Part shown: in pieces, positions 24,688 through 60,304 of the stretch
Layout: each line of letters opens with the position of its first letter
Position numbering within the stretch: position 1 is the stretch's first letter
NCBI GenBank assembly: GCA_951406725.2
Contig: OX597820.1
Coordinates: 62,868,001-62,932,000 of the forward strand
Reading direction: 5' to 3'
Length of the DNA stretch: 64,000 bases
DNA from: Octopus vulgaris
Lineage: Eukaryota
The notes under the pieces: generated by a model
Seen by the model: the letters and a program-made list of their open reading frames with translations, nothing else
The model's database searches: none
What the model was told of the DNA's origin: nothing
Program-made: the position numbers and the translations under genes

Positions 24688-24778
24688 GTCCATCTACGGG
24701 CCGTTTCGGCGACGCGCCAATTGATATTATTAGACGTATCATATACTTAAAATTGGTACTCCCCTCATCAGGATGTCC
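24688..24778 (-). ncRNA. Type I hammerhead ribozyme
   Basis: Minus strand: CATC-CTGATGA-GG...CCAATT...AATTGG...CC-GAA-ACGG-C-CCGT-A-GATG. Complete core, stem I CATC/GATG, long stem II, short stem III, GUA cleavage triplet. Confidence 0.8.
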
Positions 24779-25177
24779 TATACATACAACATATAGTAAA
24801 CGTAAACAAATACACAATCACATACCGGCCATATTCAGAACCGAGACATTAGGTACTACCAGAAATTTTTCTCCGATCCTGAATGCTACTTTATACGCAT
24901 ATAATTCGACCCAGCAGCCATTGTAAATGGTATGCACGCAGCGCAATCTGGATCATTTCACTTCTGCACTTATTTTATTTTATTTTATTTTATTTCAATC
25001 TTTTAAATTACCACATACATGCAAAGCCACATATTCGAGTTCAAGTCCTTGACACATTTTATACTAATAGATATTTTTTTTAATGATTTTTTCTTTTAAT
25101 AATTACATTACTTTAGTTTTATTTCATTTACTACTTACTATGCTTACTAAATTTAATTCAATTGTTATTGCTTAGCT

Positions 25178-25687
25178 CTAACTTTTATTGCTATTTCTGT
25201 TTCTAAATTTCATATGGAACGTCGAGTGGATCCTATGAGTACACGCTGGTATTGCATCAGTGAACATATTTAACACTGCGTTGTTGTAATTTTTCAATAT
25301 ACTATATGCTTCCCTTATGCATAAACCGCATCTAGTGGACGCAATTCTATAAGGGGAGGCATGCGCAAGGATAGCCCATGATATTTTAAATTCAACATTC
25401 CTTTCCTTAAGGTCATTAACATGTAATGCCAAAGTTGTAGAGGTCCTATATTTAGGATTGTCGAAAGAGCTCAGGTGGGATCGGTACCTCTGCTTAAAGT
25501 CTACTGTGCTTCCAATATATATTTTTCTCTGGCCTCCTTCAGTCTCGACACTACATTTATAAACTACATTTTCCTGACAACAATTTCCTCTAATCGGACA
25601 TACTGATGGGTCGCCACAATTACATTTCTTCATTAGAGCACTTCTATTTCCAGTCCGTTGTATATCTTGAGCGTTGTTGTCACTCAA
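25178..25687 (-). CDS. Penelope-type GIY-YIG endonuclease domain (fragment, RT missing)
   Basis: CNC...CP...C...NVVYKC...IYIGST.DFKQRY.SH..SF...TTLA.H...W.IL...CGLC..E...LN...C.H: GIY-YIG (VVY/YIG) with the Cys/His motifs typical of Penelope-like elements. Confidence 0.85.
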   Translation of the reverse strand: MSDNNAQDIQRTGNRSALMKKCNCGDPSVCPIRGNCCQENVVYKCSVETEGGQRKIYIGSTVDFKQRYRSHLSSFDNPKYRTSTTLALHVNDLKERNVEFKISWAILAHASPYRIASTRCGLCIREAYSILKNYNNAVLNMFTDAIPACTHRIHSTFHMKFRNRNSNKS

Positions 25688-25710
25688 GATATAAATTTAT
25701 ATTTCGTATA

Positions 25711-26122
25711 CTCCTTTACTCTTTTACTTGTTTCAGTCATTTAACTGCGGCCATGCTAGAGCACCGCCTTTAATCGAGCAACTCGACCCCGGGACTTATT
25801 CTTTTGTAAGCCCAGTACTTATTCTATCGGTCTCTTTTGCCGAACCGCTAAGTAACGGGGACATAAACACACTAGCATCGGTTGTCAAGCACTGCTAGGG
25901 GGACAAACACAGACACACAAACACACACACGTATATATATATATATATATATATATATACGACGGGATTCTTTCAGTTTCCATCTACCAAATCCACTCAC
26001 AAGGCTTTGGTCAGCCCGAGACTATAGTAGAAGACACTTGCCCAAGGTTCCAGGCAGTGGGACTGAACCCGGAACCATGTGGCTGGTAAACAAGCTACTG
26101 ACCACACAGCCACTCCTGCGCC
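25711..26122 (-). mobile_element. tRNA-derived SINE family A, full length
   Basis: Head GGCGCAGGAGTGGCTGTGTGG...GGTTCAGTCCC on the minus strand; matches 1325-1736. Confidence 0.9.
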
Positions 26123-28151: not shown

Positions 28152-28737
28152 ATACATACATATACATGTATATATGTACACGCACATCTGTATGTGCATG
28201 TGTGTGTGTGTATGTTTATGAGATTATTCGAAATTTAAGAGAGATAACAGATTAACAGCTTTCGATAGATGCCTATTAATCTGAAAAGTAGCGACAACTG
28301 GGCCACACTCTCCTTGTAAGATGATATTGAAAATATTGGAGATGCGGATGCGGTAATAAAGAAGACTGTTAGAAGACGAATAGAGGAATATGAAGTGGGG
28401 GGCGACGGAGGAGGGAGAGGGTGAGAGAGAGAGAGAAGGTGAGAAGGTTAAAGAAGAAGAAGAAGAAAAAAAAAGAAGAAGAAGGGCAACAAGAAGAAGT
28501 AGAAGAAGAAGAAGAAGAAGAAGAAGAAGAAGAAGAAGAAGAAGAAGAAGAAGAAGAAGAATGGAAACTATTTTCTTTAGTGAAAGTCAACCAGATTATA
28601 ATCTTCAAATTTATTTAGGTATGATACATGCAGCGTTGCAATGTTCAATGTGTCCCTCATGCTGTAGGCTAGACACACGCATATCCACCAAAAAGAAATA
28701 TATAATAATTATTTATATGTGTATTCTATTAATTGCC

Positions 28738-28945
28738 TCAGTCATTCGACAGCTGCCATGCTGGAGCACCGCCTTGAAGGGTTTTAGTCGAACGTATCGA
28801 CCCCAGGAATTCATTTTTTTAAAACCTTGTACTTATTCTAACGTTCTATTTTGCCGAACCGCTAGGTGATAGTGACGTAAACACTCCAACTCCGGTTGTC
28901 AAGCGATTACAAGGTAGCAAACAGAAACACAAATACACACACATA
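28738..28945 (-). mobile_element. SINE family A, 3' half (split copy)
   Basis: tcagtcatt...ccatgctggagcaccgcc...tttgccgaaccgctag...cggttgtcaagcgat; the matching 5' half lies at 29890-30052. Confidence 0.85.
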
Positions 28946-28956
28946 GGTATAAACTA

Positions 28957-29004
<48 letters not shown>

Positions 29005-29010
<6 letters not shown>

Positions 29011-29507
29011 TTAAGGGTAAAAATTGATATTAGTCAATTAAAACCAGTGGTCTAGCATATTAAAAAGAATCCAAAGATTAAAATATTTATATATACCAAT
29101 TAAGGACTGAACACGAAAAAGTGGACAGTCAACATGCTAGATATAGACGTCAAATCGCCATTCTCCACAAAGATTATGTTCTCAAATAAAATAACATTCA
29201 GCACAAGCCAAAGCAATAAATAGGACAAATGAAAATATACGAAATAAAATAATCACCTGTGTACCGAACGGTTTCAGTTATTAATATCACAAGGATATCT
29301 GTAACTTCGTCAGCACAGTTTGTTATGAACATAATTTGCTGGACTAGATGAAAAACGATACCGGAGTCTCGCATGCATAAAGTTCAACCGATTAAGTTCG
29401 AGTGTATCTTTTATTTTATTTGAGAACATAATCTTTGTGGAGAATGGCGATTTGACGTCTATATCTAGCATGTTGACTGTCCACTTTTTCGTGTTCAGTC
29501 CTTAATT

Positions 29508-29517
<10 letters not shown>
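29005..29517 (-). mobile_element. Non-coding Penelope-like/retrozyme-like element with a 100-bp perfect inverted repeat
   Basis: 29095-29194 is the exact reverse complement of 29411-29510; the loop contains a hammerhead; flanked by (TA)n. Confidence 0.75.
29257..29318 (-). ncRNA. Type I hammerhead ribozyme
   Basis: Minus strand: CTGTG-CTGACGA-AGTTA...ATATC-CTTGT-GATAT...TAACT-GAA-ACCG-TT-CGGT-A-CACAG. All three stems are Watson-Crick, the core is intact, and the cleavage triplet is GUA. Confidence 0.88.
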
Positions 29518-29560
<43 letters not shown>

Positions 29561-29566
<6 letters not shown>

Positions 29567-29889
29567 GAGGAATGACCACTAAAGTGGACACCGAACGGTT
29601 TCAGTTATTACGGTATTATCACGAAGAGTGTGTTCTCAAGTTATCTGCGTGTTTGCATACGTTGTTATTAACAAGTGAAACCATGGTACGTAGGTAAACG
29701 TTTTATTATTTCGTATATTTTCATTTGTCTTGCTCATTTTTACATTTTGGCGTTTCCTGAGTATTTTCTTGAGAACACATTCTTCGTGATAATGGCGATT
29801 TGACATCTATGTTTAGCATATTAGTTGTCAACTTTAGTGGTCATTCCTCTTAATTTTGTATGTAACACAAATTTTAATCTTCGGGTTAA
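29561..29889 (+). mobile_element. Diverged relative of the 29005-29517 element, opposite orientation, also with inverted repeats
   Basis: 29700-29885 aligns with the minus strand of 29070-29250; 29561-29590 pairs with 29826-29855 and 29615-29640 with 29768-29793. Confidence 0.7.
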
Positions 29890-30052
29890 TCTTTCAGTTT
29901 AATCTACCAAAATCCACTGATAATGCTTTGGTCGTCTAGAAGATATAGAAGAAGACTATAGCCTTCCTCCGACCAAGGTACCACGCAGTGGGATTGAATT
30001 TGAAGCTATGTGGTTGGGAAGAAAGCTTCTCCCCACACAGTCACGCCGCCTG
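29890..30052 (-). mobile_element. SINE family A, 5' half (split copy)
   Basis: tctttcagttt...ctaccaaaatccac...acgcagtgggattgaa...atgtggttgggaag...cacacag matches the head of family A. Confidence 0.8.
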
Positions 30053-30262
30053 CACACCGTAAGCAAAAAGAAATAAAGTAAAATCAAACAATACAGTATC
30101 TCACTATAGGTTAAAAATTGATTTAAACGAATTCTCGCTTTTGATATTGATGTCCGGAAAGAAAAGAAAAGGAATTTTCCGACTGATCCTTTCGTCCGTA
30201 TTTTTTTTATCGCTGTCAGCTTACTTCCCAGGCAATCAATCAGTCTATGTATGTATATATAC

Positions 30263-56285: not shown

Positions 56286-56349
<64 letters not shown>

Positions 56350-56350
<1 letters not shown>

Positions 56351-58321
56351 GATTTCAAAGATTTCAAACTTCCTGAAGCACAATATGTCGTTGTGGAATA
56401 CGAATCTCCAATTATACCACTCTAATGGAGTACTTGCCTCAGAAAATATAAACATCAACTGTGGAATTTTTCAAGGTGACTCACTTTCACCTTTAATATT
56501 CTGCATAGCCCTAATACCCCTTACAAGTGAATTAAACAGAACAGGGTATGGGTATAAAATTGCCAATAAAAAAATAAGCCATCTATTTTATATGGATGAC
56601 TTAAAACTTTATGGTAAAGACAATATTGAACTTGAAGGCCTATTGCGCACCGTGAAAGCATTCAGCGATGACATCGGGATGGAGTTTGGACTTGAGAAGT
56701 GTGCCAAGGCCACTTTCCAGAAAGGGAAAGTGAAGACCACAAATTCAGTCGTGTTAGATGTTGACACAGTCATAAGAGAGCTTGAGCAAGAACAAACATA
56801 CAAATATTTAGGGAAAAATGAAGGGTCTGGTATTCAGCATACATGCATGAAAGAGAAAATCAGGAAGGAATGTTATAGGAGAGTTCGTGCAGTCCTGAAA
56901 TCTGAACTAAATGCACGTAACAAGGTGTTAGCTATAAATTCCCTAGCAGTTCCAGTTGTTACTTATAGCTACAATGTGTTGAACTGGAATATGAGTGAAG
57001 TAAAGAATATAGATAGAAAAATACGCAAGCTGCTGAGTTGTAATAGGATGCACCACCCAAAGGCAGACGTAGATCGCCTTTACCTTCCCAGAGCCCAAGG
57101 AGGTCGAGGCCTGATCCAATTTGAACTAGCTTACAAAACAACCACAATTGGACTGGCCAAATATCTCGAAATATCGAATGACTGGATGCTAAAGCTCGTG
57201 GAAAATCACGAGAGACGAAAGAAGCTTCATTCTATCATCAAGGAAAGCAAAAAATTTGCTATTGATCTCGTGCAGGATACCCAAACTGAACAACCCGAGG
57301 GAAGTACGGCAACTATTGTTGCAAAGAAGGTGAAAATGATGGCAATGAAAAAAGCGCACGAGCAATTGGCTGATAGGTGGGAGGAGAAACCTCTGCACGG
57401 CAAATATGTGACCCGCAGCAAACAAGCTGATGTTGACCAGAAGCAAACCCATCAGTGGCTGCGGAGCTCAGGGCTAAAAGCAGAGAGCGAAGGTTTCATC
57501 CTGGCTGCTCAAGACCAAAGCCTATCAACCCGGAACTACCAGGCCAATGTGATGAAAAATGGAGCAGACCCAAAATGCCGATTCTGCAACGACATGATTG
57601 AAACAGTGGACCACCTAATCTCTGGATGTAAAGTCTTAGCACCAGTGGAGTATAAATTAAGACATGACAGAGTTGGCCAATATCTCCACTGGCTAATAAG
57701 TCGGCATTACAATATCAAAACTGCCGACAAGTGGTATAATCACCACCCTGAGGCTGTAACTGAAGGAGAAAATGTAACCATTCTGTGGGACTTTCCAGTA
57801 CATACAGACCGAACCATCAAGGCCAATAAACCAGATATTGTTGTGAAAGACCAAAACAATAAAGTTTGCTTATTGATCGACATGAGCATCCCCTGTGATC
57901 ATAATATCTCAGCGAAAGAGTTTGACAAGCTCAGAAAATATAAAGACCTACTCATTGAAATTGAGAAAATGTGGCATCTCAAGGCGGTTACAATACCAGT
58001 GATCGTAGGAGCACTAGGAATGATCAAGAAGGGAACCGAAAATTATATGAGAATGATCCCTGGCTTACCATCCCTGCAAGAAGTGCAAAAGATTGTCTTA
58101 ACTGGTACATCACACGTATTGAGAAGAGCATTGTCGATGTGAGAACTGTTGCTGCTCATGTATTTTAATTTAACTTTAAAAAAAAAAAAAAAAAAAAAAA
58201 ATTAACGAACTACTGAGTTTGGCTTAATGGCCTACCAATATACACTATGAGTTTCTTTGCCCTAGAAGTCGGGAAGACACTCGGCAAGAAATGGAAGAAA
58301 ATTTGAAAGAAGAAAAAAAAA
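56350..58321 (+). mobile_element. 5'-truncated R4/Dong-clade non-LTR retrotransposon inserted in (TAA)n
   Basis: Open RT-CCHC-RLE frame, short 3' UTR with hairpin (tttctttgcc...ggcaagaaa), and pure (TAA)n on both flanks. Confidence 0.9.
56385..58142 (+). CDS. Reverse transcriptase (C-terminal part), CCHC zinc knuckle and restriction-like endonuclease
   Basis: GIFQGDSLSPLIF, HLFYMDDLKLY, YKYLG, LYLPRAQGGRGL, CRFC...HLISGC, RHD, KPDIVV...IDMSIP...KLRKY; no stops over 585 codons. The ATG is internal because the element is 5'-truncated. Confidence 0.92.
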   Translation: MSLWNTNLQLYHSNGVLASENININCGIFQGDSLSPLIFCIALIPLTSELNRTGYGYKIANKKISHLFYMDDLKLYGKDNIELEGLLRTVKAFSDDIGMEFGLEKCAKATFQKGKVKTTNSVVLDVDTVIRELEQEQTYKYLGKNEGSGIQHTCMKEKIRKECYRRVRAVLKSELNARNKVLAINSLAVPVVTYSYNVLNWNMSEVKNIDRKIRKLLSCNRMHHPKADVDRLYLPRAQGGRGLIQFELAYKTTTIGLAKYLEISNDWMLKLVENHERRKKLHSIIKESKKFAIDLVQDTQTEQPEGSTATIVAKKVKMMAMKKAHEQLADRWEEKPLHGKYVTRSKQADVDQKQTHQWLRSSGLKAESEGFILAAQDQSLSTRNYQANVMKNGADPKCRFCNDMIETVDHLISGCKVLAPVEYKLRHDRVGQYLHWLISRHYNIKTADKWYNHHPEAVTEGENVTILWDFPVHTDRTIKANKPDIVVKDQNNKVCLLIDMSIPCDHNISAKEFDKLRKYKDLLIEIEKMWHLKAVTIPVIVGALGMIKKGTENYMRMIPGLPSLQEVQKIVLTGTSHVLRRALSM

Positions 58322-59889: not shown

Positions 59890-60157
59890 ATTCTTGGGGG
59901 GGACCAAAAACGTAACAAAAATTTTGTCACATTTGGGCATGATCCGAAAAGTTCTGTCCTTGAGTTTAGACATGTAGTAGGGTCTAAGCTGCTTTTCCAG
60001 ATAAGCCATCTCTTCATGTCGCATAGACCGCACTTTCCGCTGCCGTTGGTGTAGGGCTTATATTTGGCCAAAATCTTCCAATGGATGTTGTAATTGACAC
60101 CTTTATCTTTTAATGACCATATATGATTGGATAATTTTGTCGCTTTCTTTTTGTTCC
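59890..60157 (-). mobile_element. Penelope-like endonuclease C-terminal fragment
   Basis: KKATKLSNHIWSLKDKGVNYNIHWKILAKYKPYTNGSGKCGLCDMKRWLI...LNSRTELFGSCP...KFLL, collinear with the end of the 25178-25687 ORF. Confidence 0.8.
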
Positions 60158-60304
60158 TCTATTTACATAATATTGAGGTATCTTTCTTTCTTTTATCTTA
60201 CCGTTTTTACCAATATATATATATATATATATAATAGGCCTGTGTATATGTATGTGTTGCTTATATAAGCATATATGGCCTTCTCTTTTTATTTATGTAT
60301 TTGA

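Follow-up and report, generated by a model that had tools for sequence, protein, structure and literature searches.

Animal genomes harbor non-LTR retrozymes, which are non-coding, low-GC repeats whose tandem units carry a type I hammerhead ribozyme with a weak, palindromic stem III, which range from monomers to multimers, and which co-occur with Penelope-like elements (PLEs) (the cited portions of PMC7229834 and of bioRxiv 10.64898/2026.07.22.740005). Retrozyme RNAs include linear and circular monomers; a PLE has been proposed as their helper, with the re-ligated circle being copied repeatedly (PMC7229834, same portions). Movement of animal retrozymes by Penelope machinery has thus far been proposed from this co-occurrence and from pLTR homology, which the cited part of the preprint gives for 24 of 57 Xenopus families; just one of nine retrozyme dimers is described there as cleaved in vitro. 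The preprint, in that part, sampled no cephalopod, the words 'octopus' and 'cephalopod' have no occurrence in the main text of PMC7229834, and 'ribozyme' has none in the main text and supplement, as available, of an Octopus repeat annotation (PMC13282606).

PLEs themselves have a distinctive insertion anatomy. EN+ PLEs of the Hydra clade insert at (TA)n, are 5'-truncated, form partial tandems and inverted 5'-truncated copies, and carry a tail at one end only and a hammerhead near the 3' end (PMC8557442, excerpts; the one-sided tail is described in excerpts of PMC3846280 as well); Hydra elements have already been listed for Octopus (Hydra-1_Obim, PMC8557442). For the PAc Poseidon element in vitro, two adjacent RT start sites bound the tail, both strands of an AT-rich target are cut and extended with priming on each, uncleaved RNA is the main substrate, and hammerhead mutants still insert (PMC11167929, excerpts). 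Non-autonomous PLE derivatives occur among Chlamys elements (e.g., MRC1) as multicopy head-to-tail insertions; as a rule, the 3' end of these resembles that of the autonomous partner, and hammerheads are missing from most Chlamys elements (PMC8557442, as excerpted).

Here a hammerhead-bearing insertion from Octopus vulgaris is compared with these systems. It lies within a 64,000-nt stretch of DNA (termed the window) and can be read with good confidence as a truncated, inverted copy of a non-coding hammerhead unit of ~508 bp, which is likely a non-LTR retrozyme and was likely pasted in trans by Penelope machinery. In the literature searched no description was found of this family or of cephalopod retrozymes; supplements and repeat libraries may list the family.

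Anatomy of the insertion

The locus consists of two insertions of related elements (family A and its older subfamily B) within the TA tract of a SINE, as follows (E1 and E2 denote two recurrent 3' end sites of the family):

28722 to 28959, minus strand: left part of the host SINE, from BLAST against uninterrupted copies in the window
28960 to 29005, no strand: (TA)23 target tract to the left of the family-A insertion
29006 to 29411, minus strand: long arm of the family-A insertion, a 5'-truncated pass of the 508-nt unit from unit position 189 through E1 to E2
29006 to 29091, minus strand: ~86-nt tail between E1 (~29092) and E2 (~29006)
29257 to 29318, minus strand: type I hammerhead motif with a weak, near-palindromic stem III; predicted cut between 29262 and 29261
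29409 to 29513, plus strand: short inverted arm, covering the terminal ~105 nt of the unit up to E1
29510 to 29561, no strand: (TA)26 tract separating the family-A insertion from its subfamily-B neighbor
29562 to 29640, minus strand: inverted arm of the subfamily-B neighbor, ending at E1
29641 to 29889, plus strand: sense arm of the subfamily-B neighbor, retaining just the 3' half of its hammerhead and with its tail cut short where the SINE resumes
29890 to 30052, minus strand: right part of the host SINE, from BLAST

The strand of the SINE is presumably minus, by analogy with octopus-type SINEs. Its two parts had been described as halves of one element split at an internal (TA)n, and so they are: 28722-28983 and 29890-30047 match 25717-25959 and 25969-26116 of another copy in the window, where the halves are thus contiguous. 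The inverted arms, originally given as identical over 100 bp, are indeed identical, and slightly longer: 29088-29194 and 29411-29517 agree over 107 bp, with 111 of 112 positions matching when the comparison is extended over 29083-29194. The two arms overlap by 3 nt at the inversion junction. An assembly artefact is an unlikely origin of the inverted arm, since the inverted layout recurs, with other junctions, at 77 of the 133 loci examined.

The subfamily-B neighbor (29562-29889) is 74% identical to family A and 82-92% identical to its own relatives. Within its inverted arm, a 21-nt patch (29590-29610) equals family-A sequence at 29263-29283 and replaces the neighbor's own sequence there; this suggests either an insertion templated locally or a jump from one family RNA to another. 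Subfamily B appears to have entered the TA tract first and later to have lost its right end, and family A to have entered to the left of it afterwards. The family-A copy had been called young, a description that needs tempering: it has 5 private substitutions in 314 sites, and its nearest copies are 2.2-3.6% away, so that its youth is moderate. Because it retains one hammerhead and less than one full unit, it is probably inert, a dead end.

The hammerhead motif and the repeat family

The minus strand of 29257-29318 contains the elements of a type I hammerhead: the CUGANGA (here CUGACGA) and GAAA core, an NUH (here GUA) cleavage triplet and three stems, of which stem I is open; upon mapping of the motif, the putative cut falls between 29262 and 29261, as first predicted. 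The initial annotation's description of a perfect ribozyme with fully paired stems holds for stem I (CUGUG/CACAG) and stem II (AGUUA/UAACU, continued by a further 6-bp stem), and fails for stem III: pairing of ACCG with CGGU would close a 2-nt loop, so that in the monomer the stem has 3 bp and the loop 4 nt. All 4 bp can form only in a dimer (predicted self-dimer energy, -11.2 kcal/mol). Moreover, the catalytic fold (-12.1 kcal/mol) lies 4 kcal/mol above the predicted minimum (-16.2), in which the core is paired with the stem III region, and in the whole minus-strand transcript the pairing probability of stems I and III is ~0 in a model that omits tertiary contacts. The hammerhead is thus predicted to misfold, and to be non-catalytic, as a lone unit.

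A strict hammerhead descriptor has this site as its sole match in the 64,000-nt window, and it matches nothing in 200 dinucleotide-block shuffles of that sequence. No Rfam family reaches its gathering score in the window, and no hammerhead family is among the 21 Rfam matches at E<=10 over 28600-30200; this reflects the coverage of the library and not a defining feature of hammerheads. Among 34 hammerhead variants of the family, 96% of 646 cells are paired (22-44% in controls with a slid alignment) and two-sided changes occur at 7 of 19 pairs, where the relatedness of the sequences makes the cell counts overstate the number of independent events. In distant subfamilies, stems I and III are re-formed from different sequence, stem III staying near-palindromic. 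The structure is therefore maintained by compensatory change.

The family is multi-copy, ORF-free and arranged head to tail. In the genome there are 65 matches to the exact hammerhead-core pattern, 1,965 to the family's 3' 19-mer and 2,588 to the tail-hairpin pattern (with no matches to the reversed control in each case), and the best 40 of 1,544 candidates from a DNA search of the same genome are copies of 83-97% identity. The 508-bp unit occurs in arrays of 2-7 units, in which units differ at 0-2 positions (a 5-unit array) or at 2-6 positions (a 7-unit array). Related subfamilies have units of 505-534 bp that are 80-91% identical, and across the family tandem units span 505-564 bp; these lengths lie inside the 51-972 bp range of the preprint (bioRxiv 10.64898/2026.07.22.740005, cited portion) and exceed the ~170-400 nt of the retrozymes in the cited portion of PMC7229834. 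As originally noted, the unit has no ORF of consequence: in a doubled natural unit the longest ATG-initiated ORF is 44 aa in the sense and 56 aa in the antisense direction. The family exhibits the genomic attributes of a non-LTR retrozyme--short, low-GC, tandem, non-coding hammerhead units and dispersed copies alongside co-existing autonomous PLEs--and the initial view of it as a non-autonomous, ribozyme-bearing, retrozyme-like retroelement with Penelope traits is supported.

More distant young families have hammerheads of their own and have a tail region or E1 context in common with this one. Family D (L191:3621-4135 and L246-L265) is a 564-bp hammerhead tandem family with copies 96-98% identical, with the same two-ended scheme as family A and with a ~86-nt tail homologous to that of family A. 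Family F (L219:2865-3190, minus strand, and L366-L385) is very young (98-100% identity), carries a hammerhead and is likewise arranged head to tail.

Insertion ends, template RNA and the search for a parent

The 3' ends of family copies fall at two fixed sites, E1 and E2, ~90 nt apart, and 86 of 102 such ends abut TA-rich sequence. The 133 loci comprise 77 inverted insertions (with both 3' ends facing outward), 55 single copies and one irregular case. The inverted insertions pair the two sites almost strictly: 66 are E1+E2, three are E1+E1, none is E2+E2, and eight include an unclassed end; of the single copies, 30 end at E1, 21 at E2 and 4 elsewhere. On chromosome 1, where 40 loci were drawn from the first 100 of the 1,965 listed matches with end type disregarded (a choice that favored lone matches and long arrays), 22 of 25 inverted insertions are E1+E2. 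(For these counts L003 was replaced by L061 and same-place duplicates were removed beforehand. The fragmented or complex loci L020 and L061 were left out of the 133-locus, 100-arm and homogeneity counts, and three neighboring separate segments were left out of the last of these as well.) Arm lengths and inversion junctions differ at each locus; 22 of 40 junctions overlap by at least 2 nt and eight carry inserted bases instead.

The window insertion conforms to this rule, its long arm ending at E2 and its short arm at E1; accordingly its inverted repeat represents the 3' end copied once more, over a shorter length that depended on where cDNA synthesis happened to stop. Since the inverted arm is made at insertion and its junction differs from locus to locus, the hammerhead lies in the loop of an inverted repeat by accident, and the initial framing, with the inverted repeat as part of the element, is not supported; the mirror-image arm is likely a by-product of insertion and not a functional RNA hairpin. 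A MITE or foldback DNA transposon was also considered and rejected: there are no fixed terminal inverted repeats, the arms vary per locus, and 55 of 133 loci have no inversion.

Tandem and inverted insertions, a one-sided tail and a microsatellite target are together characteristic of Penelope-type insertion. By comparison, (TA)n targeting, two fixed 3' ends and inverted twin-ended insertions are absent from the descriptions in the cited portions of the retrozyme papers. In PAc Poseidon, as far as the excerpts of PMC11167929 go, the start sites do not differ between strands and show no homology to the target, whereas in the octopus family the coupling of E1 to E2 in inverted insertions is almost strict, and each site resembles the target in being TA-rich. 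No description of such an end-pairing rule for a retrozyme was found in the literature searched.

What RNA was copied can be asked of the arms themselves. Among 100 arms, 73 cross the predicted ribozyme cut site (at loci picked for holding a hammerhead), and 5' ends fall within 3 nt of that site in 2 of 189 cases, compared with 2.65 expected. A cleaved linear monomer can therefore be rejected as the template, since with such a template E1 arms could not exceed 170 nt and 5' ends would lie at the cut. Each insertion, moreover, carries one variant: both alleles of a subfamily-diagnostic site turn up within a locus in 8 of 950 coverings, close to the 1.0% at which passes of a locus differ in any case, as against a 41% mismatch between loci, and 16 locus-private alleles, distributed over 14 of 50 multi-pass loci, are common to all passes. 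This pattern would fit a circular template or a homogeneous multimeric one; alternatively, a single dominant source array that is itself homogeneous, or gene conversion acting on the arms, could account for the homogeneity. A circular fold of the unit gives z=-3.9 against 40 shuffles, a value that is suggestive only. Public sequencing runs (four, three of them presumably RNA) cover parts of the unit as contigs, a level of data that is blind to transcript ends, strand, circles and edits.

The strongest competing account accepts the family and its Penelope-type insertion and dispenses with the circle: a homogeneous tandem source would be transcribed into a linear multimer that serves uncleaved as the template, and the hammerhead would be kept for another step, such as transcript trimming or turnover. 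Free passage of cDNA across the cut site, the predicted misfolding of the monomer hammerhead and the insertion by PAc in vitro with no need for hammerhead cleavage (PMC11167929, cited portion) all agree with it. So does a modest surplus of 5' ends over unit positions 161-180 (13 versus 5.0 expected), where several arms of 1.7 to 2.7 units begin, as a transcription start would produce; this excess, however, concerns one bin of 26 in a sample partly selected by a query ending nearby. (A larger pile-up, 15 versus 4.6 at positions 160-190, shrank once subfamily-matched references were used.) Set against this account are the small size of the differences between units within arrays, as given above, together with the near absence of mixed subfamily alleles and the presence of the 16 private alleles in all passes. 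A linear multimer is accordingly somewhat unlikely as the template.

It is considerably less likely that the unit is the pseudo-LTR of an unsampled autonomous Penelope, and each copy an ordinary 5'-truncated inverted end, as one of the initial suggestions (a truncated Penelope end) had it. Standard PLE anatomy does include inverted 5'-truncated ends, a tail on one side, (TA)n targets and hammerheads, many PLE families in this genome have hammerheads in their UTRs, and the DNA searches scored the best 40 of 1,544-2,284 candidates. Yet of the 100 arms, all 37 that exceed one unit run into another unit and none into an ORF, unlike run-on copies of the Hydra-like family X (see below), which continue into the beginning of the ORF. 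This, together with arrays of 5-7 units and the lack of any Penelope ORF continuous with a unit at any locus examined, disfavors the suggestion. Apparent ORF links at L061, L067, L192 and L108, like the Penelope ORF fragments found near family copies, are separate insertions; in the closest case an old ORF, cut in mid-endonuclease, is joined through a short inversion. The unit contains neither the RT-plus-GIY-YIG ORF of an autonomous EN+ Penelope nor a remnant of any of 123 PLE proteins (best tblastn match 18 aa, E=0.01). No autonomous PLE with unit sequence was found among 159 loci of several families in a genome that has many more: three loci gave profile matches to the unit, of which two are separate neighboring elements and the third has E=0.023, and neither families X, Y and Z nor 70 loci around other endonuclease C-termini show UTR homology to the unit. 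In this respect the family departs from the Xenopus retrozymes with pLTR homology mentioned above (here no homologous pLTR was found) and from the Chlamys derivatives, in that it has a hammerhead and no sequence partner among the sampled PLEs. It departs from Hydra-clade PLEs, as described in the excerpts of PMC8557442, in the absence of an RT-GIY-YIG ORF, in a tail of 86-92 nt versus 30-40 bp, and in a canonical, not minimal, hammerhead ~170 nt upstream of E1.

The genome nevertheless offers candidate helpers in three young autonomous families. Family X carries the defining motifs of the Hydra clade (RWK, DKT, CxCX5C, CxxC and CxH); its tail is ~67 nt long, and its classed inverted insertions follow the E1+E2 rule in 9 of 9 cases. 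Family Y is likewise Hydra-like, its frames being 727 aa long, and family Z has a ~35-nt tail and also targets (TA)n. Judging from its zinc-finger linker, we take family Z to be Neptune-like. Dozens of intact, near-identical ORFs occur, both Hydra-like (727 aa; L146-L175) and Neptune-like (784 aa; L216-L245), which indicates current activity. A Hydra-clade RT-GIY-YIG protein is favored as the most likely helper on account of the (TA)n target and the long tail, as judged from sequence features. The length of that tail at the same time counts against the Penelope reading, inasmuch as 86-92 nt exceeds both the published 30-40 bp and the ~67 nt of family X.

Several further observations concern PLEs and other retroelements in this genome. 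Family X has, by eye, an apparent hammerhead (L098, ~2298-2360) in which the core reads CCGAAGA where CUGANGA is the norm and the stem III loop is a single base; one descriptor applied to one copy of the Neptune-like UTR found no hammerhead. At L219 the E1 end of a young family-F copy runs directly, without a TA tract, into a truncated young family-Z ORF, which may represent a template switch or else two insertions in one tract or nested insertions. At L061 (G000:C2, ~69.507-69.519 Mb) family-A copies, a 70-bp duplication and two opposed family-X copies are interleaved. The window itself also contains a truncated, inverted-end copy of family X (59913-60233, minus strand, ~90% identical), an older Penelope endonuclease fragment (25181-25696, minus strand) with a canonical-looking hammerhead in its 3' UTR (~24690-24780, minus strand), and a LINE fragment consisting of a 617-aa open frame with an RVT_1 and a weak zf-RVT match (56289-58139, plus strand). 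The hammerhead row for Hydra-1_Obim in the available supplement of PMC8557442 has a 12-nt stretch, GAAA plus stem III, that equals several subfamily-B copies; this is a weak hint of kinship with Hydra elements and possibly reflects ribozyme constraint only.

That the inverted arm arose by fold-back of the first cDNA, and not by a second priming on the RNA, is very unlikely as a general account. The arms of one insertion do carry one variant, and self-priming has been proposed for PLE palindromes (PMC3846280), but fold-back requires nested arms; it is contradicted at five loci (L019, L021, L127, L133 and L138), where the E1 and E2 arms each have unique sequence, and could still hold for a minority, for instance the three E1+E1 cases. 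Least probable of all is a host-read hairpin, that is, a 107-bp duplex formed upon read-through and offered to ADAR or Dicer while the hammerhead cuts its loop: the identical arms are indeed predicted to form a long duplex whichever strand is taken (-231 and -239 kcal/mol), but arm lengths and junctions vary at every locus as by-products would, the window copy (with the private substitutions noted above) gives no sign of selection, and inspection of the window's long ORFs, as distinct from gene annotation, recognized no host exon.

Proposed mechanism and significance

Amplification through the preferred route, by way of an RNA circle inserted by Penelope machinery, would proceed as follows. 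A tandem locus would be transcribed, and two hammerheads would pair through their palindromic stem III and excise a monomer, which a host ligase would circularize; because a lone hammerhead is predicted to misfold, the circle would be spared from cleavage. Next, both strands of a (TA)n tract would be nicked by the RT-GIY-YIG protein of a Penelope, most likely a Hydra-clade one, and the two strands would each prime cDNA synthesis on one shared template, one at E2 and one at E1. Both cDNAs would stop at variable points and be joined head to head, often through microhomology. At the window locus, an E2-primed arm of ~405 nt and an E1-primed arm of ~105 nt would thereby have yielded the 107-bp inverted repeat with its single hammerhead.

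The family is best regarded as a further non-LTR retrozyme, one that inserts in the manner of a PLE. More tentatively, and with less than even confidence, it may belong to a long-lived radiation of at least six lineages of ~0.5-kb hammerhead circle RNAs, which would have lost all sequence likeness to autonomous Penelopes and would parasitize the Penelope enzyme by way of a conserved ~90-nt tail; every insertion would then result from twin priming on a single circle, with a different fixed start site for each target strand.

To the existing case for Penelope-driven movement of animal retrozymes the family adds evidence from the insertion sites: the target, tail and inversion signature are those of an active Hydra-like element in the same genome. 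Because its copies are short, ORF-free, often very young and equipped with two start sites, the family provides a compact substrate for testing trans-mobilization by Penelope, and it is suited as well to probing the strand pairing of start sites and the need for the hammerhead. If the proposed radiation of circle lineages is true, it would constitute direct genomic evidence for the proposed step from circular RNA to genome in animal retrozymes, and the use of E1 on one strand and E2 on the other would amount to a rule by which Penelope integration is resolved.
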